This document shows, piece by piece, positions 21,205 to 30,924 of a stretch of DNA of 37,395 bases. The notes beneath the pieces were generated by a model. The model ran no database searches, was not told where the DNA came from, and was given only the letters and a program-made list of their open reading frames with translations. The translations under genes were made by a program, and so were the position numbers. Position 1 is the stretch's first letter; each line of letters starts with the position of its first letter. Source of the stretch: a virus (Duplodnaviria; Heunggongvirae; Uroviricota; Caudoviricetes); IMG/VR virus record IMGVR_UViG_3300045988_031779, positions 1-37,395 of that record, one strand, 5' to 3'.

Positions 21205-21281
21205 GTGGCATTAGCTCAGCTGGACAGAGCAACCGCTTTCTAAGCGGTTGGTCGCAGGTTCGAATCCTGCATGCCACGCCA
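21205..21281 (+). tRNA. tRNA-Arg (anticodon UCU)
   Basis: 77-nt cloverleaf folded by hand: 7-bp acceptor stem GTGGCAT/ATGCCAC, D arm GCTC/GAGC, anticodon stem ACCGC/GCGGT with loop TTTCTAA (anticodon TCT), T arm GCAGG-TTCGAAT-CCTGC, discriminator G, encoded CCA. Resembles enterobacterial argU-type tRNAs. Confidence 0.85.
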
Positions 21282-21992: not shown

Positions 21993-23468
21993 TTAAGCAT
22001 AGGGATCGTAATCTGTGATGGCCTTGCCTTGCTGGTTCTGCTGACCGGGAATTCGCAGACGCTTAGACACAGGGAACGCAAACGTCAGCAGTAGCGCATC
22101 GCCTTTACCCGGTGAACGCCCAAGCCGCTCCTTGATATCTTCCTTCGGTTCGATAACGATTTTACCGTCCACTCGAACTTTGTACTCTGCCGCCGACAGG
22201 TCGTCTGCTGTTTCCTGGTCATCCAGCATGCCGCCCAGCCTCAGCCATGTCTTGCATGAATTGAACATCTCCCCACGCTTGTTGAGCATCTGCGGGTCAG
22301 TAGACGCGCCACCGAACGGAACAAGTTGCCATGTACGACCCCAGCCGTCACCGATTGACTTCAAACCGGTTCCGTAACCGAAGTCGATGAACACCGCGTC
22401 AGCCTGATACTGGTCTTCAAAGTCAGCGATACGCTTCGCCATAATCAGATCGTCGGTAGTCTTGTTGCCAGTCCACAGCACCTTACTGTGTAGCCCCTGC
22501 CGCAGGTATATCACAGCGTCATCAACGCCGGAGTATGCCGGGTCAACGCCGATTATCACCGGAGCATGTGCAACCTGCGCAGCGGTTACCACCCGTTTCA
22601 TTGCCTCGTCAGTAAGACCGGTAGGGATAAACTGCAATTCAGATGCATCAGGGAATATGCCACGCACACGGATTTTAACGAAGTCGCTGTCTTCCCCGTA
22701 GTCATCAACCCATTTCTGCAACTGCTGTTTGTTAGTGCCTTCCACCGTCCGGCTGTCAATCTGCGCAGTTTTCCAGCGGTGTTTATATTTGCGGAAACAT
22801 TCGCGAAAACGCCCGGTGTTACGTGTAGGGTTTCCGAACGCCACCCAAATAATCTCAGTGTCTTCGTCCGTAAGCGCACCCTCGGCAACTTCCCACACCA
22901 GATCCGCAATGTTCGACGCTTCATCAAACACCACGATGATGCGTTTGCGCTCGTTGTGTAGTCCGGCGAATGCCTCGGTGTTGTGCTCAGACCAGGGTAT
23001 TGCGTCAGCCCGCCACCGCTTGTCGTGCCCTAGGTCATTGCTGTACATCGCGGTAGCGGTACAGGTAAACCAGTCTTTCGTGATAGCAAGGTTCGACCAC
23101 TTGATAATTTCCGGCCAGGTCTTCGTTCGTAGCTGGTTGTCGGTGTTGGCGGTCACCACGACCTTACAATCCTCGCAAGTGGACATGCCCCAGTTGATCA
23201 GCATTGAGATGAATGCGGATTTACCAATACCGTGACCAGAAGCGCGTGCCAGCATAAGCGGCTGATAGCGCGTCTCTGGATTCTGCAGGTGATCACGTAT
23301 CTCTCGGAACGCATCAGCCTGCCACTGACGTGGGCCGGTGGCATGTGCCAGTTCAGTCCCCTCTTCCCCCCATGGGAACGCATAGAGGGCATAGCCAAGC
23401 GGATCGTGAGTGAACCCTGCAATATCCTCGATTAACTGCTCTTCAGGAGATAACGCTGTATCTGTCAC
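21993..23468 (-). CDS. Terminase large subunit, 491 aa
   Basis: Size, ATPase-like N-terminal region and acidic nuclease-like C-terminal region, 4-nt overlap with the small subunit gene upstream. Confidence 0.8.
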   Translation of the reverse strand: MTDTALSPEEQLIEDIAGFTHDPLGYALYAFPWGEEGTELAHATGPRQWQADAFREIRDHLQNPETRYQPLMLARASGHGIGKSAFISMLINWGMSTCEDCKVVVTANTDNQLRTKTWPEIIKWSNLAITKDWFTCTATAMYSNDLGHDKRWRADAIPWSEHNTEAFAGLHNERKRIIVVFDEASNIADLVWEVAEGALTDEDTEIIWVAFGNPTRNTGRFRECFRKYKHRWKTAQIDSRTVEGTNKQQLQKWVDDYGEDSDFVKIRVRGIFPDASELQFIPTGLTDEAMKRVVTAAQVAHAPVIIGVDPAYSGVDDAVIYLRQGLHSKVLWTGNKTTDDLIMAKRIADFEDQYQADAVFIDFGYGTGLKSIGDGWGRTWQLVPFGGASTDPQMLNKRGEMFNSCKTWLRLGGMLDDQETADDLSAAEYKVRVDGKIVIEPKEDIKERLGRSPGKGDALLLTFAFPVSKRLRIPGQQNQQGKAITDYDPYA

Positions 23469-24061
23469 TGATTGCCATCCTGACGTTCTTTCAGTCTCTT
23501 CCTGGCTGCCGCTATGCGATCAGCAATTGTCACATTCACATTAACATCCAGGCGTTCTTTGAATGCGTTGACGTCGACGTGCTTACCAATCAGTTCGAGG
23601 TTCTTCACCTTGTCAGGCCATTTAATTTTTTTGAGGATTGTCTCTATCGAATCCTCGTTCATGTTCATGATGGTCGATGACAGATCAAAGCCACTAAGCG
23701 TAGTGCGCCAGATTTTCGGCCACTCGCGGATTGGCTTAAGGCTCCCATCGTCGTTGAGGATGTCGATCACGTCCATCTGGTCGATCTCCACCAGGCGCAT
23801 GAGAACGTAATCAGCACTGACGCGCATTCGTTTGTTGCGCTCTTCCATCAGCTCGGCAATCCGTTTTTGAATGCGTTCATCGCGCATCATGAGACTGGCT
23901 TTAACTGCCGCTGTATTTGGGGAGAATCCTGCGTTAATCGCTGCCTGAGTCTGGTTTTCAGGCGTTTTGATGTATGACTGGCAATAAGCCTCCTGCATTG
24001 CTGTTAGTGGCTTAAATTGCGTTGATTTGCGTTTATAGGTTTTAGGTTCAGCAGGCATCAT
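23465..24061 (-). CDS. Terminase small subunit, about 198 aa
   Basis: Start preferred at the ATGATG at 24061; the track start at 24139 adds an N-terminal extension (TITTTVTITTVV) that is the translation of a direct DNA repeat and reads through a terminator. Motif PLTAMQEAYCQSYIKTPENQTQAAINAGFS resembles small-terminase N-terminal DNA-binding domains. Confidence 0.6.
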   Translation of the reverse strand: MMPAEPKTYKRKSTQFKPLTAMQEAYCQSYIKTPENQTQAAINAGFSPNTAAVKASLMMRDERIQKRIAELMEERNKRMRVSADYVLMRLVEIDQMDVIDILNDDGSLKPIREWPKIWRTTLSGFDLSSTIMNMNEDSIETILKKIKWPDKVKNLELIGKHVDVNAFKERLDVNVNVTIADRIAAARKRLKERQDGNQ

Positions 24062-24077
24062 AACCACCGTGGTAATA

Positions 24078-24094
24078 GTTACCGTTGTGGTAAT
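24078..24094. promoter_or_regulatory. Operator-like palindrome site 6: GTTACC-gttgt-GGTAAT, embedded in direct repeats GTGGTAATAGT
   Basis: 17-33 nt upstream of the small terminase start; direct repeats GTGGTAATAGT at 24069..24079 and 24087..24097. Confidence 0.4.
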
Positions 24095-24112
24095 AGTACC
24101 ATGCAAAATAAA

Positions 24113-24130
24113 GCCGCCATAGTTGGCGGC
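24113..24130 (-). terminator. Intrinsic terminator on the minus strand (GCCGCC-aactat-GGCGGC followed by TTTATTTTG)
   Basis: 6-bp GC stem with T-rich tail in the minus-strand sense, between the last early gene (24180..24518) and the terminase genes. Confidence 0.45.
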
Positions 24131-24170
24131 AGTATTCAAAACCCATCAAATTCATCATGCATAACCCACT

Positions 24171-24185
24171 CGTGACATGTCACAA
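24171..24185. repeat. 15-bp element CGTGACATGTCACAA (copy 2)
   Basis: Identical to 21906..21920; overlaps the stop of 24180..24518. Confidence 0.6.
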
Positions 24186-24518
24186 TATTAATTTCGTTTC
24201 ATGCCAGCCTTTAGTCACCCAGCATTGCGAGTCACCATTACACGGGCATGAATTCACAGGAACTCTCTCGCCGCACTTACCGCAACGTTTTCTGCTGATC
24301 GATTTTATACGCCCGTGCACGCGCGCATCATCCTGGCGGATCAGTAACGCTATATACTCACCAAATTCGTAAGGCGCACGCCCGGGGCGACGTGTGGCAC
24401 AGTTACGCTCCAGCATTTCAATTTCCTGAGCATCAAGCACAATCTCCAGCTTACGCACACCAGATGCAGCTTGTCTGGCTCCCTGAGCGGCTTTGCGCTC
24501 TGCTGCTGATTTAGCCAT
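24180..24518 (-). CDS. Zinc-ribbon protein, candidate late-gene regulator, 112 aa
   Basis: Basic N-terminal half and C-terminal Cys cluster RKRCGKCGERVPVNSCPCNGDSQC; last gene before the terminator and terminase block. Function inferred from position only. Confidence 0.5.
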   Translation of the reverse strand: MAKSAAERKAAQGARQAASGVRKLEIVLDAQEIEMLERNCATRRPGRAPYEFGEYIALLIRQDDARVHGRIKSISRKRCGKCGERVPVNSCPCNGDSQCWVTKGWHETKLIL

Positions 24519-24873
24519 TCTGATTTTCCTGCATCATGAGAAATACAATCATGGCGGCGCGGAGAACATTTTCATGCTCATGCTCCCAAATAGGGTTGGC
24601 AGAAGCACCGTGCAAACCGCTTTCGTTCCAGTCCCAGAGAATGTTAACTCCGTTATCAGCAATAATCGGCCATGCATCTGCTGGGTTTGCGCATGGGTTA
24701 AAGGATCCGCGCTCAACTTCTACTTCAACTGCGTCTCCGTTTACAATGTCTCCCTCAAATGAGATAAACACCATCGCGCCATTCTCACCTTCTTTGTAAT
24801 CCGGTGATCCGTTATGAATGGCTTCGAATACCGCCGCGTTAATTTCAAAATCACTTAACTGTGAATAGTCCAT
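24511..24873 (-). CDS. Hypothetical acidic protein, 120 aa
   Basis: Start preferred at ATG 24873 (AGGAGG 7 nt upstream, ATGA overlap with the upstream stop) rather than the track start at 25020. Confidence 0.5.
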   Translation of the reverse strand: MDYSQLSDFEINAAVFEAIHNGSPDYKEGENGAMVFISFEGDIVNGDAVEVEVERGSFNPCANPADAWPIIADNGVNILWDWNESGLHGASANPIWEHEHENVLRAAMIVFLMMQENQNG

Positions 24874-25754
24874 CACTTCACCTCCTGCGGCGGTTCTGGC
24901 AGCGGCATCCAGTACAAGGCGTTCCCTAACCACGATAAAGTGCCGTCGCTCAACTCCACGTATTCCCCTTGTACCTGTCCTGCCATATACTCGCCGTGCT
25001 TTGAATAAATTAAAATCCAATCATCTTGAGCGGGCATTCGCTCACTACAGCTTATCCAACCATCCGGAGTTACCGGAACTTGTGGAATGGCTGTCTGCTC
25101 TCGAACGTCATTAGGCGCTATAGGTTCTGCTGCCAACTGACTGGCATATTTGTTAATGGTAACGATAAGCTCTTGCTCAGCCTCATCCAGACAATCACCG
25201 ATACCTCGCCTGTCACCGTCAAAATCATCGAAATCGGCACGAATCCTGGCAACCTTCAGGATTGCGGACAACACCTCACTAGGAATTGCCGGATAGTTGG
25301 TTGACGTTTCCGCGATTTCCCGAAAATTATTGGTTGACGAATTCTTGTTTTCCCGAAAGTTTCCGGACTGAAGCATGGCGGCGCGGCAGGCGTTCCAGGC
25401 AAATAGTGCGGCTTCTTCCACTGAAGGCGGAGAGTATCGCTCGATAAACGCCTGTGCATTTGACAGCCTCCACTCATGAGGCAATACCGGCGCTGGCGGG
25501 GCGATGCGTCCAAGCAACTTATTTACCTCTTTCGCCATCGCGTCATATTTATCTAAATAGCGATTAGCTTCTAAGCAGACTCGGTGCATCTGATCTGAGT
25601 TAACTCGTTTAACGGGATCTGCTTCCAGCGATGCCAGTGCAATCCGTGCCAGTTCTTCCGCTTCTTCTGCTGGCAGTACAACGTTGCTACCCGGTCCGTA
25701 TGTTTCGCGCCACTGCTTGATTGTCAGCAGTCGCCCTTTGGTAATAGTGATCAT
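24873..25754 (-). CDS. Phage protein with DUF551-like C-terminal domain, 293 aa
   Basis: C-terminal WISCSERMP...LYWMPLPEPP matches the DUF551 signature common in enterobacterial prophages. Confidence 0.55.
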   Translation of the reverse strand: MITITKGRLLTIKQWRETYGPGSNVVLPAEEAEELARIALASLEADPVKRVNSDQMHRVCLEANRYLDKYDAMAKEVNKLLGRIAPPAPVLPHEWRLSNAQAFIERYSPPSVEEAALFAWNACRAAMLQSGNFRENKNSSTNNFREIAETSTNYPAIPSEVLSAILKVARIRADFDDFDGDRRGIGDCLDEAEQELIVTINKYASQLAAEPIAPNDVREQTAIPQVPVTPDGWISCSERMPAQDDWILIYSKHGEYMAGQVQGEYVELSDGTLSWLGNALYWMPLPEPPQEVK

Positions 25755-26267: not shown

Positions 26268-26843
26268 TCACTCTCCTTTGATGCGAATGTCAGCGACGCG
26301 TAATGCGTGTTCTAGGTCAATCAGGTAAAGCCAACTGCCATTTTCTTTAGGTATCATGACTTGTCGCTCATCTGCATTTATGGGGTGTCCATATCGAAGG
26401 TCGTAGCGAGTCGGTAATTGAACTTCCCGCGCTTCCAGTTCAGCAATACGCTTGCACCCATCAGAGATAACTCCCTCGTAATACTCGCGCTGCTCGTTGA
26501 GTTTTGATTTTGTCTCCTCAAGCTCAACGCGCAGCTTCCCAACCGTAAGCGCAATATCCTCGTTCTCCTGGTCGCGGGATTTGATGTATTGCTGGTTTCT
26601 TTCCCGTTCTTCCAGAAGCGCCTGCACTACTTCAGGGTTGAAAGCTGCGATATAACGAGCGTTGTTCTCTGCGTTTTTCTGTTCGTCGAATCCTGGCCAG
26701 TCGACAATATCTCCGTGATGATTATCACCTGGTGTGTGCACGGCGTACGTGCCGTATTTGCCCGGCGAAATAAATGCGACCCATTCGCCTTGTGTTGCCT
26801 GTTTTGCTATCTCACGCAGTGCCTGGTAATTAATTTCGCTCAC
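26268..26843 (-). CDS. Ead/Ea22-like protein, 191 aa
   Basis: N-terminus MSEINYQALREIAKQATQGEWVA typical of Ead/Ea22-like proteins; coiled-coil centre. Confidence 0.6.
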   Translation of the reverse strand: MSEINYQALREIAKQATQGEWVAFISPGKYGTYAVHTPGDNHHGDIVDWPGFDEQKNAENNARYIAAFNPEVVQALLEERERNQQYIKSRDQENEDIALTVGKLRVELEETKSKLNEQREYYEGVISDGCKRIAELEAREVQLPTRYDLRYGHPINADERQVMIPKENGSWLYLIDLEHALRVADIRIKGE

Positions 26844-27643
26844 TGGTTGCCTCCTTTGCGAAGCTCTGCGGCAAAATCAGTCGCATGCTCACCGAGTAGT
26901 TTCCAGTTATCGCGTATATCAGATGCAAGCGACTGTTCGGATTTTGAGTTACATTTCTGTGCAAACATCTCCAATCCCTGCGCCCGCACTTCAGCCAGGC
27001 ATTTGCGAAACTCGGAAACGTACTGTTCGACGCTCATTCCCCAGCTAAGTGGACATTCATTGAATGTTTCGCCTTCGTGCTCTTCATCAGGTAGCTCTTT
27101 GGTAAAGAACTCACGTTCAATGGCGTGGAGTGTGTCAGCAAAACGACGTAAGTTACTCAAACCTGTCGTAATGGAGAATTCAGGAGCATCACATCCGACG
27201 CCCATCTGCTGATAAACGGCGGTTTTGAAGGCCTTAAGCCCCGCATTCTCCGCTGCCAGCGCCGTGAAATTACCCTCCAGCTCTGCAATGCGCTGTTTTG
27301 CGGTATCAAGTTCAATCGATAATTTTTCCAACTGCTCTTTATGCTTCTTGTATTCCTGATATGCGTGCCAGGACTGACCTTTGCGCACACTATCAGTAAT
27401 ATCAGTAATCTGTTCTGGTGTTAGCGTGGTCAGTGGCTGTGCTGGGAAAATCAGCACTTTCCCGGAATCCCAATCAAAACCAGCGTGAATTGACTGAACC
27501 TCAACTGAGGGTGTTGAACCAATGCTGCCAGGCGAATGAACAACGATCGTTACATCCATATCGCGACGATGGCTGTGGTTGTTGGACAAAATACGATTCA
27601 ACAAAATACGATTCACCAACTCAGAAAATTTGGAGAATTTCAT
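26840..27643 (-). CDS. Ead/Ea22-like coiled-coil protein, about 267 aa
   Basis: Shares the ALAAENAGLKA coiled-coil motif with 28059..28775. Start preferred at ATG 27643 (GAGG 7 nt upstream); track start 27655 is TTG. Confidence 0.5.
   Translation of the reverse strand: MKFSKFSELVNRILLNRILSNNHSHRRDMDVTIVVHSPGSIGSTPSVEVQSIHAGFDWDSGKVLIFPAQPLTTLTPEQITDITDSVRKGQSWHAYQEYKKHKEQLEKLSIELDTAKQRIAELEGNFTALAAENAGLKAFKTAVYQQMGVGCDAPEFSITTGLSNLRRFADTLHAIEREFFTKELPDEEHEGETFNECPLSWGMSVEQYVSEFRKCLAEVRAQGLEMFAQKCNSKSEQSLASDIRDNWKLLGEHATDFAAELRKGGNQ
27586..27615. repeat. Perfect tandem duplication of 15 bp (ACAAAATACGATTCA x2)
   Basis: Direct read; lies in the 5' end of the ORF 26840..27643 and encodes NRILLNRIL. 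Confidence 0.8.
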
Positions 27644-27651
27644 GCGGAGCC

Positions 27652-28062
27652 TCAATATGCAAAATAGACCGTTGCCACGCCGTTATAGTGATCAAACGAT
27701 ACGGCGTTTACTTCATAACTGGCCGGGAGCTTCGAGCCAAGAACGTATCCGGGCCACGTTTTCCATGGAATTTCTCTATTCTCACTACCCCCATATACCG
27801 TACATCCAAGTGAACCTACAGCTTCATTAGAACGCGTGCCGCACGTTATGAATCCCAGATTTTGCTTACTGCTCTTAATGGTGATTGAGTGAACGCTGGC
27901 TGATGCATTAGCAGCACGCTGTGCCTGTTGGTTTGCGATATTCGCAGAGTTCGCAGCAGCTACAGCAGCCGTAGTCGCGGCGGTAGAGGCTACAATAGCT
28001 GCTGAAGCATGCACTTGTTGGATATTCACCAACAATGCCGCGATAAAAATCATCTTCTTCAC
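27652..28062 (-). CDS. Secreted protein with signal peptide and Ala/Thr/Asn-rich low-complexity region, 136 aa
   Basis: N-terminus MKKMIFIAALLVNIQQVHA is Sec-signal-like; C-terminal domain with two Cys; no family recognised. Confidence 0.5.
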   Translation of the reverse strand: MKKMIFIAALLVNIQQVHASAAIVASTAATTAAVAAANSANIANQQAQRAANASASVHSITIKSSKQNLGFITCGTRSNEAVGSLGCTVYGGSENREIPWKTWPGYVLGSKLPASYEVNAVSFDHYNGVATVYFAY

Positions 28063-28775
28063 TTGTCAGCTCCTTTGCGAATCTGTTCCGCCCATTCTTC
28101 AAGGGATTTCTCCGCATATTCACCAGACAGGCCATCAATCGGATGCGCTTCATTAGCCAACTCTTCTTTCGCTGACAAAATCATGCGTGTAACGTCGAAA
28201 ACTTCACGCAAAGACTTATTGATAAATCCGTGATTGAACGCAGCAGCAAGACGGCTGGCGGTATAGTTAACTCCCTCGTTGCGTGCTTCCGCACGAATTT
28301 CAGCCATGAAAGCGTCGGTGGCTGGGGTTTCGATATTAGGCAGAAGCGCATAATCGCAAATCGTATCGATCGCAGGATCACAACAGTCATCCTCGTTGCG
28401 TGGTCGTTCGCCAACCTTCGTTGACGATTGCATGATGATTCCCCAGCAAATACTATCGACCTCTTCGCTCCATCCATCGCAAGCATCACCGCGATAGTCG
28501 TCGATTGCAGCCTCAGCCGATTCGATAGCTTCCTCAGCAGTTTTGTGCCATTCGAAATTATGCTCAGAGCCATATGAGAAATATGAATGTCCCGCCTTCA
28601 GCCCCGCATTCTCCGCCGCCAGCGCATTAGCACGCACCAGTTGCACTTCCAGTTGCGTTGCCAAATCGCTGATCAGCTTTGCCACACTGCGCATATCAAC
28701 GGCACCACATTCTGCTTTCAGTTCCGAAGCCATCTCATGCCCGGCGGAAACTAACCCTTTGATATTACTTTCCAT
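28059..28775 (-). CDS. Ead/Ea22-like protein, 238 aa
   Basis: Coiled-coil ALAAENAGLKA motif shared with 26840..27643; acidic and Trp-rich C-terminal region. Confidence 0.55.
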   Translation of the reverse strand: MESNIKGLVSAGHEMASELKAECGAVDMRSVAKLISDLATQLEVQLVRANALAAENAGLKAGHSYFSYGSEHNFEWHKTAEEAIESAEAAIDDYRGDACDGWSEEVDSICWGIIMQSSTKVGERPRNEDDCCDPAIDTICDYALLPNIETPATDAFMAEIRAEARNEGVNYTASRLAAAFNHGFINKSLREVFDVTRMILSAKEELANEAHPIDGLSGEYAEKSLEEWAEQIRKGADK

Positions 28776-28836
28776 CTTTACCCTCGCTTATCCACATAAC
28801 TTATTGATTACATTGATAACTAAAAAGATCGTCGAT

Positions 28837-29184
28837 TCAGAACTCTTCGATGTTCCAGCCACCACCTGCTTTCTTTGGCTTAACCGTTACCCCGATGATT
28901 CGGAACGGATACTGATCTGCGGCGACTTTGGTTTTCACTCTGGCGTCATCGGTCCAGAATCCCCCTTTCACTTCGTGCAGTTCCACCTCGCCGGTGGCGA
29001 GCATCACAGCAAAATCTGGCGTATAGAACGTGTTGTCAGCTAACCGCAGCTTGATACCCTCAAATCGATACCAGACGATTTCTCCTGCACGTTTACGCAG
29101 CTCAAGGTGCTGGCAATACGCAGATTCTGTTTTGTTCATCTGGCCTGTTTTGAGTCGACCAAGAGCCTGCATCTGTTTTCTCAT
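28837..29184 (-). CDS. DUF1064-like putative PD-(D/E)XK nuclease, 115 aa
   Basis: Motifs YTPDF and ELHEVKG fit a D...E-x-K nuclease core; first gene downstream of the replication genes. Confidence 0.45.
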   Translation of the reverse strand: MRKQMQALGRLKTGQMNKTESAYCQHLELRKRAGEIVWYRFEGIKLRLADNTFYTPDFAVMLATGEVELHEVKGGFWTDDARVKTKVAADQYPFRIIGVTVKPKKAGGGWNIEEF

Positions 29185-29186
29185 GA

Positions 29187-29203
29187 TTTACCCCTTAGGT
29201 AAT
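29187..29203. promoter_or_regulatory. Operator-like palindrome site 7: TTTACC-cctta-GGTAAT
   Basis: 4-20 nt upstream of the start codon at 29184. Confidence 0.45.
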
Positions 29204-29302: not shown

Positions 29303-30103
29303 TTACTTGATAAATCCTGACGCCTTTCCCCGCCTGTATTCCTCCATCAGCCACTGCGCCGGTGTTATTCCCCCAAGGGTGGCGGCGTTAGGCATGCACC
29401 CGAAACTTCGCCCTGGTGGATGGTAAACGTCTCTCCCTGTGTCCGGAGGCGTACTCATGGGTTCTGGCTTTGCCTGTATGCTGATCACCGGATCGGGTAT
29501 CTGCTGTCCGGAAGCCACCTTTTTCGCCCAATCATCGAGCAGCCTGCGCGCGTGTTTCTCAACCTCAATCTCGCTAAGCTGGCGCTGATACATTGCACGG
29601 CGGGTATCACATACGACCCAGTACATAACCGGATGTCGCCACGGGAATCTTTCGGGACCACCAGGATATAAACTTTTTTCCTTGCTGTACCGGTGAAACT
29701 CCGCCATCACATCGTCAATGGTGACGCCAAGAACCATCTTGCTGTCTTTACACCACTTGATGAATTGCCCTGGCGACGGCCAGAACGGAGACTCACTGGC
29801 GCGGGCGTGGCGCATACCAGCAGAAACCTGTTCACGGGTTCGGATCCCACCTTCGGCAAACGCAGCAATCCACTGCTGTTTTGCAGCAACTTCCTGCTCT
29901 GGCGTCTTCAGGTTGGTTACCACTGCCGCCGGAAACAGTTGTTTCAGCTGTTTGAAAAGGGCATCAACAAGCCTCTCTGCTGACATGTTCACCACGTTGT
30001 CATTGTTGGTGTACTGATGCTCATAACCTGACATGCGAGAAAGGGCTTCTCCGTCACGGTTTTGTATCGCGGTAAAAACGTTGTTCACAAGAAATCCTCC
30101 CAT
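29303..30103 (-). CDS. Replication protein P-like helicase loader, 266 aa
   Basis: Segment KQQWIAAFAEGGIRTREQVSAGMRHARASESPFWPSPGQFIKWC aligns by eye with lambda P (RRQWVLAFRENGITTMEQVNAGMRVARRQNRPFLPSPGQFVAWC); directly follows the O-like gene. The start overlaps the O-like gene by 19 nt and may be downstream. Confidence 0.7.
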   Translation of the reverse strand: MGGFLVNNVFTAIQNRDGEALSRMSGYEHQYTNNDNVVNMSAERLVDALFKQLKQLFPAAVVTNLKTPEQEVAAKQQWIAAFAEGGIRTREQVSAGMRHARASESPFWPSPGQFIKWCKDSKMVLGVTIDDVMAEFHRYSKEKSLYPGGPERFPWRHPVMYWVVCDTRRAMYQRQLSEIEVEKHARRLLDDWAKKVASGQQIPDPVISIQAKPEPMSTPPDTGRDVYHPPGRSFGCMPNAATLGGITPAQWLMEEYRRGKASGFIK

Positions 30104-30924
30104 GCTTCAGGGCTGTTCCAGTGCGGAACGTTGTTATCAGGTAATGTTGATTGCTTCTGTCTGCTAATCTGCAGCCGCCTTGCCAGCTTCTGCTCCCACT
30201 GTGCCTGATGGTATGCCTTACCCTCAGCCATCCAGTAAATTCTGAACTCTGCAAGTTCCTGTGCCGTTGGCAGACTGTCCAGGTAGATCCCCTGCAATGA
30301 GCTTTTCCGAAGAAAGTCATCTGATGGCTGCCATTGTTCATGCATGACAAATTTGCCTAATTGCCCTGGCCCACCAGGAGGAACAAAGTTATTCATCACG
30401 GCGTTGTTTGCGCCGGGGTCATGATGCACAGAATCCCCGTTTTTTGTCCTGCTCTCCCTCTCTTGGTTAAATGACTGGTTATATGACTGGTTCTGGATCC
30501 CGTTTTTGGGATCATTCAACATCCCGTTTTTGGGATCATTCAACATCCCGTTTTTGGGATCATTCAACATCCCGTTTTTGGGTATATTCCCGTTTTCGGT
30601 AACATTACCGTTTTCGGGTTCATTGCCCCCCTCTCGGTTGCCTTTAATGTTCCCGTTTTTGGTTATATTAAGAGAGAAAACCCGCACTCTTTTTGTCGCT
30701 CCCTTTCTCTCCCCGGTATCTGAAATAAGCCCCATTTTCATGAGCGATATAAGTCCGGCCTGCACGGTTTTTTTATTCAGGCAAGTGTCTTTAACGAGGC
30801 GTTCTATGCTGGGGTAGCAGAGGTTATATTCATCGGCTCTGTCAGCCATCGAGAGCAGTATGAGCTTTAATGACGAGCTACCTGGATCTGTCTCCCAGGC
30901 CCAATCTGTTGCATGTCTGCTCAT
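30085..30924 (-). CDS. Replication initiator (lambda O-like, helix-turn-helix N-terminus) containing origin iterons, 279 aa
   Basis: ATG at 30924 with GGAG 8 nt upstream; N-terminal DNA-binding-like region; internal peptide repeats PKNGMLND encoded by the DNA iterons; position upstream of the P-like gene. Confidence 0.65.
   Translation of the reverse strand: MSRHATDWAWETDPGSSSLKLILLSMADRADEYNLCYPSIERLVKDTCLNKKTVQAGLISLMKMGLISDTGERKGATKRVRVFSLNITKNGNIKGNREGGNEPENGNVTENGNIPKNGMLNDPKNGMLNDPKNGMLNDPKNGIQNQSYNQSFNQERESRTKNGDSVHHDPGANNAVMNNFVPPGGPGQLGKFVMHEQWQPSDDFLRKSSLQGIYLDSLPTAQELAEFRIYWMAEGKAYHQAQWEQKLARRLQISRQKQSTLPDNNVPHWNSPEAWEDFL
30496..30664. repeat. Origin-like iteron array: core CCGTTTT(T/C)GG, four copies at 24-bp period plus three degenerate copies
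   Basis: Direct read: ATCCCGTTTTTGGGATCATTCAAC repeated with 24-bp periodicity from about 30498, then copies at about 30591, 30609 and 30653; A/T-rich segment follows. Confidence 0.7.

Follow-up and report, generated by a model that had tools for sequence, protein, structure and literature searches.

A predicted exported accessory protein encoded in the early operon of an epsilon15-type phage and distributed among unrelated phages of enterobacteria

Early small exported proteins are among the few tools with which a phage can change the cell envelope from within. Few of them have been characterised (Imm, Sp, RI, Llp, Cor and Sim), and each of these revealed a distinct entry or lysis checkpoint. 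The exported accessory early phage proteins Imm, Sp, Llp, Cor and P1 Sim are exclusion or envelope-protection factors. Spackle (Sp) and Imm are the early superinfection-exclusion proteins of T-even phages, and Cor (of phi80, N15 and T1-like phages) and T5 Llp are FhuA-blocking lipoproteins of the outer membrane. T4 Imm and Sp are established as early periplasmic phage proteins blocking entry, according to PMC13128918, which cites Lu & Henning (1994) for this point. On the bacterial side, HxsA, the periplasmic effector of the HXS anti-phage system, is reported to block phage DNA entry from the periplasm (PMC13128918), and the DUF1471/YhcN proteins (BhsA, McbA, YdgH and others) form a group of small enterobacterial periplasmic stress and biofilm proteins.

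Here we analyse a 136-residue protein encoded in a phage genome segment of 37,395 nucleotides (the whole stretch examined, hereinafter designated the window). The protein resembles T4 Sp and Imm in being small, early and accessory, in carrying an N-terminal envelope-targeting signal and in its predicted action in the periplasm or membrane during lytic growth. Cor and Llp share with it the character of small envelope-targeted accessory phage proteins, in T1-like phages too, and one subfamily of the present family bears a lipobox. By contrast, the 136-residue protein itself is without a lipobox Cys, the phages that carry it share no receptor, and no homology to Cor or Llp was detected. HxsA is likewise exported and contains a low-complexity region, but it is encoded by the host, depends on rSAM maturases and contains both His-x-Ser repeats and a peptidoglycan-binding domain, none of which is present here (PMC13128918). 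HxS triplets in one subfamily (HLSHAS) were considered as a link to HXS and dismissed, being residues of the signal-peptide c-region near the cleavage site. Sequence comparison gave no support for membership of DUF1471/YhcN either, with no PF07338 match and an hhalign probability of 2.4% against nine E. coli K-12 DUF1471 domains. Compared with DUF1471, the 136-residue protein has an extra beta-hairpin with a putative disulfide, and it ends in YFxY where DUF1471 ends in IYK.

Early operon and recombination flanks

By its sequence, the window is an almost complete temperate podovirus of the epsilon15/phiV10 type (Uetakevirus); PAS61, phiv142-3, TL-2011b and ZX5 match 74-81% of 23 kb at ~97-98% identity. 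The early-right operon, on the minus strand, starts with a Cro-like gene, an O-like gene with iterons, a lambda P-like gene (29303-30103) and a DUF1064 gene. It continues with an Ead-like gene (28059-28775), the gene for the 136-residue protein, a phrog_6026/Ead-like fusion (26840-27643) and an Ead/Ea22 gene (26268-26843), and ends with further small genes followed by the small terminase. The preliminary description of this DNA had placed the gene in a nin-like early block among Ead/Ea22-like neighbours, a setting borne out by its position downstream of the lambda P-like and DUF1064 genes and among Ead/Ea22-type mosaic genes.

The nin-like block leads directly into the small terminase (23465-24139 to 24180-25754) with no lysis cassette between them, in the window as in the related prophage L001, an organisation in keeping with the epsilon15 type and not with the lambda type. 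Within the O-like gene (30085-30924, minus strand), positions 30473-30670 hold at least four repeats spaced 24 bp apart, each containing the palindrome ATCCCGTTTTTGGGAT, followed by at least three degenerate copies; the array resembles the iterons of a lambdoid replication origin that lies within the initiator gene. A tRNA-Arg gene (anticodon TCT; 21205-21281, plus strand) is situated between the terminase region and the portal region and is encoded on the other strand from the structural genes, and the same feature is found in a related prophage of E. coli CUVET20-PYO2.

The gene and its immediate surroundings comprise the following features.

27652..28062, minus strand: open reading frame of 136 aa plus TGA stop
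28070..28075, minus strand: Shine-Dalgarno sequence AAGGAG, 7 nt 5' of the GTG start codon
28059..28062, minus strand: GTGA, in which the stop of the Ead-like gene upstream overlaps the GTG start
26840..27643, minus strand: gene downstream, encoding 267 aa counted from the ATG, in which a phrog_6026 N-domain is joined to a C-terminal part of Ead-like type

The reading frame, which occupies exactly the interval first proposed for it, runs from the GTG at 28062-28060 to the TGA at 27654-27652, and its GC content (0.482) equals that of the window. The GTGA overlap indicates translational coupling to the upstream gene and, together with the ATG of the downstream gene 8 nt past the stop codon, wires the gene into a translationally coupled operon. 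A scan for consensus sites alone, over 26800-29200 of the minus strand, found nothing resembling a sigma-70 promoter or a terminator. Judged by possession of a promoter and terminator of its own, the gene is not an autonomous moron cassette, and it is predicted to be translated with the early lytic genes as part of the post-O/P, nin-like operon.

At every inspected locus the homologue lies within a tightly packed array of small phage genes. A phrog_6026-type gene (by its N-terminal 115 residues) follows directly in 40 of the 65 loci compared, including that of the virulent phage Av-05, and where the gap was checked directly, in the window, L001 and Av-05, it measures ~8-9 nt. The remaining 25 loci, three of which are too short to show the neighbour, carry the gene without an adjacent phrog_6026 gene; they include the Mu-like and T1-like loci and a subfamily with MAKFQR N-termini (hereinafter designated the MAKFQR subfamily). 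We considered the phrog_6026-type gene as an obligatory partner and rejected this, given the 25 of 65 loci without it, in favour of linkage by a common module. On the upstream side, most loci have the same C-terminal 80-95 residues of an Ead-like gene in front of the homologue.

Comparison over loci L001-L062 delimits the co-travelling flanks. The homologue is accompanied, at 91-100% identity, by the C-terminal 80-95 residues of the gene upstream and the N-terminal 115 of the gene downstream, while the remainder of each flanking gene is swapped, and in the window these flanks correspond to 28059-28340 and 27299-27643. The pattern places recombination junctions inside the flanking coding sequences, and we read the gene with its flanks as a probable recombination module, not as a functional pair.

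Protein architecture, family and carriers

The protein can be divided into three parts.

28006..28062, minus strand: signal peptide, residues 1-19, MKKMIFIAALLVNIQQVHA, with predicted signal peptidase I cleavage after VHA
27892..28005, minus strand: spacer, residues 20-57, SAAIVASTAATTAAVAAANSANIANQQAQRAANASASV, Ala/Thr/Asn/Gln-rich with a single charged residue
27655..27891, minus strand: C-terminal domain, residues 58-136, HSITIKSSKQNLGFITCGTRSNEAVGSLGCTVYGGSENREIPWKTWPGYVLGSKLPASYEVNAVSFDHYNGVATVYFAY, conserved, with the folded part at ~68-136
27841..27843, minus strand: codon of Cys74, invariant, the putative disulfide partner of Cys87
27802..27804, minus strand: codon of Cys87, invariant

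This division agrees with the preliminary description, which had claimed a signal peptide, an Ala/Thr/Asn/Gln-rich region and a C-terminal domain with two Cys. The signal peptide has the canonical n/h/c form, with K2 and K3 in the n-region, a 9-residue core (MIFIAALLV; Kyte-Doolittle mean 3.2) and V-H-A at positions -3 to -1. Under a rule-based test (positive n-region, hydrophobic core of 7-15 residues, small neutral residues at -3/-1), the protein and 101 of 106 full-length family members pass. The VHA of the cleavage site reads AQA in most relatives and the Ala at -1 is invariant in the family alignment; the signal-peptide sequences diverge between subfamilies (MKKMIF.., MAKFQR.., MKHAIIAL.., MKLKAAIM..) with their form kept. 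Two independent public annotations of homologues, 'Prophage exported protein' for one UniRef cluster and 'signal peptide domain' from a depositor, point the same way, and the invariant Cys pair fits an oxidising compartment and was counted for export. The protein is very probably exported to the periplasm, with signal peptidase I cleavage predicted after A19.

The protein contains no lipobox ([LVI][ASTVI][GAS]C) and no Cys in its first 73 residues. Of the family's 109 clusters, 28 from the MAKFQR subfamily (P0056, P0071-P0099; loci L056-L061) carry LSAC or LSSC (MLSAC/MLSSC), and sister alleles read LSAS (MLSAS). Some members of this subfamily are probably lipoproteins, which the 136-residue protein is not, and a single Cys/Ser change would be expected to switch between a lipoprotein and a soluble periplasmic form. 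The lipobox clusters argue that members of the family act on the periplasmic side of a membrane. Other small open reading frames with signal-peptide-like or lipobox-like N-termini occur within 1-2 kb of the homologue in L044 (7211-7687) and L057 (6952-7161 and 7956-8228), and exported accessory proteins may be clustered in the variable regions of these Mu-like and phage-plasmid loci.

The spacer consists of 38 residues (17 Ala, 5 Ser, 4 Asn, 3 Thr, 3 Gln, 3 Val, 2 Ile and 1 Arg). The motifs of the C-terminal domain are GF[IV]TCG, GSLGC, IPW..WPGY.LG, ASY.V and the C-terminal FD.YN.VAT[VI]YF.Y. The alignment shows G70, T73, C74, G75, C87, P104, Y116, V118, D124, T131, Y133, F134 and Y136 to be invariant, and the conserved sequence is rich in aromatic residues (W100, W103, Y106, Y116, F123 and Y126). 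C74 and C87 are the only Cys of the domain; exactly two Cys occur past residue 25, outside the signal peptide, in 105 of 109 family members.

In the full-length AlphaFold2 model the C-terminal domain is predicted with confidence (pLDDT ~90). A domain-only model of residues 58-136 (79 aa; 17-sequence alignment; pLDDT 87.6, pTM 0.75) gives the order beta-beta-beta-beta-alpha-beta-beta, with C74 at the end of strand 1 and C87 at the start of strand 3, so that a C74-C87 disulfide stapling the hairpin is plausible in the model. A Foldseek search against BFVD returned the protein's own homologue as its sole match. The modelled fold appears, on current evidence, to be an orphan, and any kinship with small periplasmic alpha/beta domains would be very remote. 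The C-terminal YF-x-Y was also considered as an outer-membrane-protein beta-signal or a DegS-activating tail; both were rejected, since this strand belongs to the modelled sheet and several homologues run 1-5 residues past YF-x-Y.

The protein is identical to RefSeq WP_000738190.1, a 'hypothetical protein' of E. coli chromosomes and phage-plasmids, and matches the HMM of phrog_8805 ('unknown function') end to end (residues 1-136 on profile positions 1-136 of 136; E 1e-85). These entries are the same family without any difference; they supply a name and no mechanism. The only further PHROG match is a weak, low-complexity one to a tail-fibre family (E 0.007). The protein and 20 family members tested have no Pfam match at E<=10, and the protein has none in NCBIfam, PADLOC or PDB sequences. 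Across Pfam, PHROGs, NCBIfam, PADLOC and PDB sequences there is no homology to a characterised superinfection-exclusion, immunity, conversion or defence family, nor did the fold match any characterised exclusion protein. The Ead_Ea22 domain (PF13935) is not found in it, though the neighbour at 26268-26843 matches at 1.9e-40, and neither a Pfam family nor a fold match connects it with the periplasmic lysozyme inhibitors (Ivy, PliC/MliC, PliG and PliI). A literature search found no published mention of any family member. Of the homology and structure searches proposed at the outset, the former thus recovered a phage family, phrog_8805, and neither yielded a characterised homologue or fold. The family is already catalogued in PHROG and RefSeq and is uncharacterised; it is familiar in kind, as a small exported phage accessory protein, and shows no relationship to the characterised examples in either sequence family or fold.

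An exhaustive HMMER scan, which covered 1.84 billion representatives, yielded ~10 true clusters at 50% identity, and a profile search yielded 107 clusters at 90% identity; the family numbers ~110 clusters. The proteins in the clusters of the profile search are all standalone, 109-142 aa long and unnamed, with no domain fusion. Family sources are Escherichia, Salmonella, Shigella, Citrobacter, Cronobacter, Rahnella and metagenomes. The matches P0063-P0065, P0068 and P0070 of the HMMER scan are long eukaryotic-type repetitive proteins (BRCA2, Ig repeats) aligned over many short stretches at E 1e-5 to 1e-9; they are spurious, and such false positives are to be ignored in automated family expansion.

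As DNA sequence, the gene is present in 64 of the 5426 complete E. coli genomes, 47 times on a chromosome and 20 times on a plasmid. All 66 carrier plasmids in PLSDB are non-mobilizable and roughly 85-110 kb long, and the one examined has P1-type phd/doc and humD genes. A tblastn search of 50,697 phage records matched only five: two belong to Av-05, a virulent phage of the Vequintavirinae (71% identity, full length), and the others to three siphoviruses of ~45 kb (46-52% identity over the C-terminal domain), one of which, KW1E_UTAR, has a T1-like gene order and no annotated integrase. PAS61, phiv142-3 and TL-2011b, close relatives of the window phage, are not among the five, indicating that the gene is accessory. 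In the Mu-like context of L044 the homologue lies between a DUF2786 gene and gemA/mor. Carriers therefore include epsilon15-like (the window), Mu-like and T1-like phages, P1-like phage-plasmids and the virulent rV5-like Av-05. As judged from these comparisons, the family is phage-restricted and accessory and moves between unrelated phage lineages that share only enterobacterial hosts.

A scan of species-representative genomes returned a single locus and thus carries no host-range information. One 3.2-kb contig labelled 'MAG: Actinomycetes bacterium' (JAFAFN010000164.1; L062) carries the gene at 87% identity amid the same neighbours from E. coli phages, and is almost certainly a mis-binned or contaminating enterobacterial phage fragment.

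Possible roles in the cell envelope

A domain of 70 residues with no catalytic motif and many conserved aromatics is much likelier to be a module that binds a ligand or a protein than an enzyme, for which it is too small, and there is a good chance that the protein acts by binding and not by catalysis. In the mechanism that we put forward, the protein would be exported through Sec and cleaved by signal peptidase I after residue 19, which would release to the periplasm a 117-aa mature protein made of a flexible or helical Ala/Thr/Gln-rich spacer and the compact 70-aa domain, probably disulfide-stapled. The domain would most likely bind either a component that the envelopes of Enterobacteriaceae have in common or the entry machinery that an incoming phage uses in the periplasm, and the outcome would be superinfection exclusion or envelope protection of the infected cell, as with T4 Sp/Imm, T5 Llp, Cor and P1 Sim.

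The protein would probably alter the cell envelope during infection. Exclusion or protection is ranked first among its roles because characterised early, exported, accessory phage proteins have those roles, and on that analogy the assignment is at best tentative. Taken as a whole, the description of the protein as an accessory early periplasmic binding protein for superinfection exclusion or envelope protection is a working proposal, somewhat short of an even chance.

The preliminary description had suggested exclusion or conversion, and the timing of such a role can be narrowed. The lack of an own promoter or terminator and the translational coupling in an early operon favour a role in lytic growth over classical lysogenic conversion, as do the homologues in the virulent Av-05 and the T1-like KW1E_UTAR. 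Without its own promoter the gene may not be expressed in the lysogen, and the classical form of exclusion, in which a prophage protects its host, is ruled out unless there is read-through.

The carriers also bear on what might be bound. They differ greatly in receptors and tail types, which makes a receptor-specific block of the Cor/Llp kind unlikely and implies that whatever is bound should be generic. A compact, confidently predicted fold in a phage-restricted family common to very different temperate and virulent coliphages likewise suggests something common to enterobacterial envelopes. Tail enzymes that degrade peptidoglycan, the transit of DNA through the periplasm and a common envelope protein are candidates. 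A bolder version of the exclusion proposal, which we consider rather unlikely, is that the family is a new class of phage periplasmic effector with an orphan fold, swapped among epsilon15-, Mu-, P1-, T1- and rV5-like phages and blocking a generic step of envelope penetration. Such an effector would, for example, inhibit tail-associated muralytic enzymes or DNA transit across the periplasm, and the variable Ala/Thr spacer, or the lipid anchor of one subfamily, would set the position of the domain relative to the membranes. If a generic entry step is blocked, the family would be relevant to the design of phage-therapy cocktails and to the understanding of phage-phage competition, and would provide a new periplasmic binding scaffold; should no phenotype appear, it would stay among the many accessory genes known only as conserved hypotheticals. 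It is a reasonable candidate for a phenotype screen and would not surprise a specialist.

Binding in the periplasm could also serve a purpose other than competition between phages. The protein might manipulate the host envelope to aid phage development or as a conversion factor, an explanation we regard as doubtful. Its partner might then be a protease, a peptidoglycan enzyme, a stress sensor or a biofilm or stress protein, bound or inhibited, and in this the protein would be comparable to the small enterobacterial periplasmic DUF1471 proteins.

It is improbable that the protein is instead a periplasmic regulator of the phage's own lysis, whether as an antiholin in the style of T4 RI or by modulating endolysin or spanin, so as to set the timing of lysis or lysis inhibition. 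A small protein exported early, encoded in virulent and temperate phages alike, would suit that function, as would the segment that follows the signal peptide, which is rich in Ala/Thr/Ser, weakly hydrophobic (Kyte-Doolittle 1.5 over 19 residues) and similar in composition to signal-anchor-release segments. However, this Ala-rich segment is absent from the T1-like homologues, and the gene is never next to lysis genes: in KW1E_UTAR the holin and endolysin genes are 11 kb off, and in the window the gene lies in the nin-like block. Moreover, the carrier phages have unrelated lysis systems and no PHROG lysis family was matched.

N-terminal segment, selection and spacer length

That the N-terminus stays uncleaved, so that residues 4-37 would serve as the hydrophobic segment of an inner-membrane protein, type II membrane-anchored or re-entrant, is very improbable. 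These residues are uncharged and mildly hydrophobic overall, AlphaFold2 gives one continuous helix over residues 5-55, spacer included, and one depositor's note lists 'transmembrane domain and a signal peptide domain'. Against this, the helix is predicted at low confidence (pLDDT 51-62), and the strongly hydrophobic core extends over only ~10 residues before it is broken by N13, Q15, Q16 and H18, which is too short for a membrane anchor. The small-x-small site with its invariant Ala at -1 is kept family-wide, and the T1-like homologues, which have no Ala-rich stretch, pass from an A-N-A site directly into a short polar DYTPE segment.

Among 27 distinct full-length alleles retrieved from related loci, dN/dS over the reading frame is 0.23, and by region it is 0.17 for the domain, 0.32 for the spacer and 0.45 for the signal peptide. 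The gene is under purifying selection, and its conservation is seen in this ratio and in the motifs kept across the family. The term 'low-complexity' used there holds for the composition of the spacer, yet in the close family the spacer is itself under purifying selection. Given the strong Shine-Dalgarno sequence, the GTGA coupling and the dN/dS of 0.23, this is a real coding gene, and the other open reading frames listed over the same stretch, on either strand, are unnecessary for explaining the conservation. That the frame is a non-functional chance product or a decaying remnant, as the highly mosaic surrounding block and the truncated or frameshifted Ead-like genes of related loci might suggest, is effectively refuted by the conservation data, with length and motifs kept to ~40% identity in unrelated phages and with a confident predicted fold besides.

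Across the wider family the spacer varies from almost none to ~50 aa, and the distance from the N-terminus to GF[IV]TCG ranges from 44 to 78 residues, which marks the spacer as apparently dispensable and variable in length. An alanine zipper or coiled coil in the Ala-rich region was considered and set aside, the one Pfam match (E 0.29) and the tail-fibre low-complexity matches (E 0.007-6.6) being not significant. In loci L052-L055 of the MAKFQR subfamily the spacer contains an (Ala-Ala-Ala-Thr)n tract, (AAAT)n, encoded by a 12-bp tandem repeat (proteins P0088, P0096, P0100 and P0118), which is present in 5.5 copies in L054 (5931-5996). The copy number of this repeat varies among otherwise near-identical MAKFQR-subfamily loci, suggesting that slippage drives variation in spacer length.
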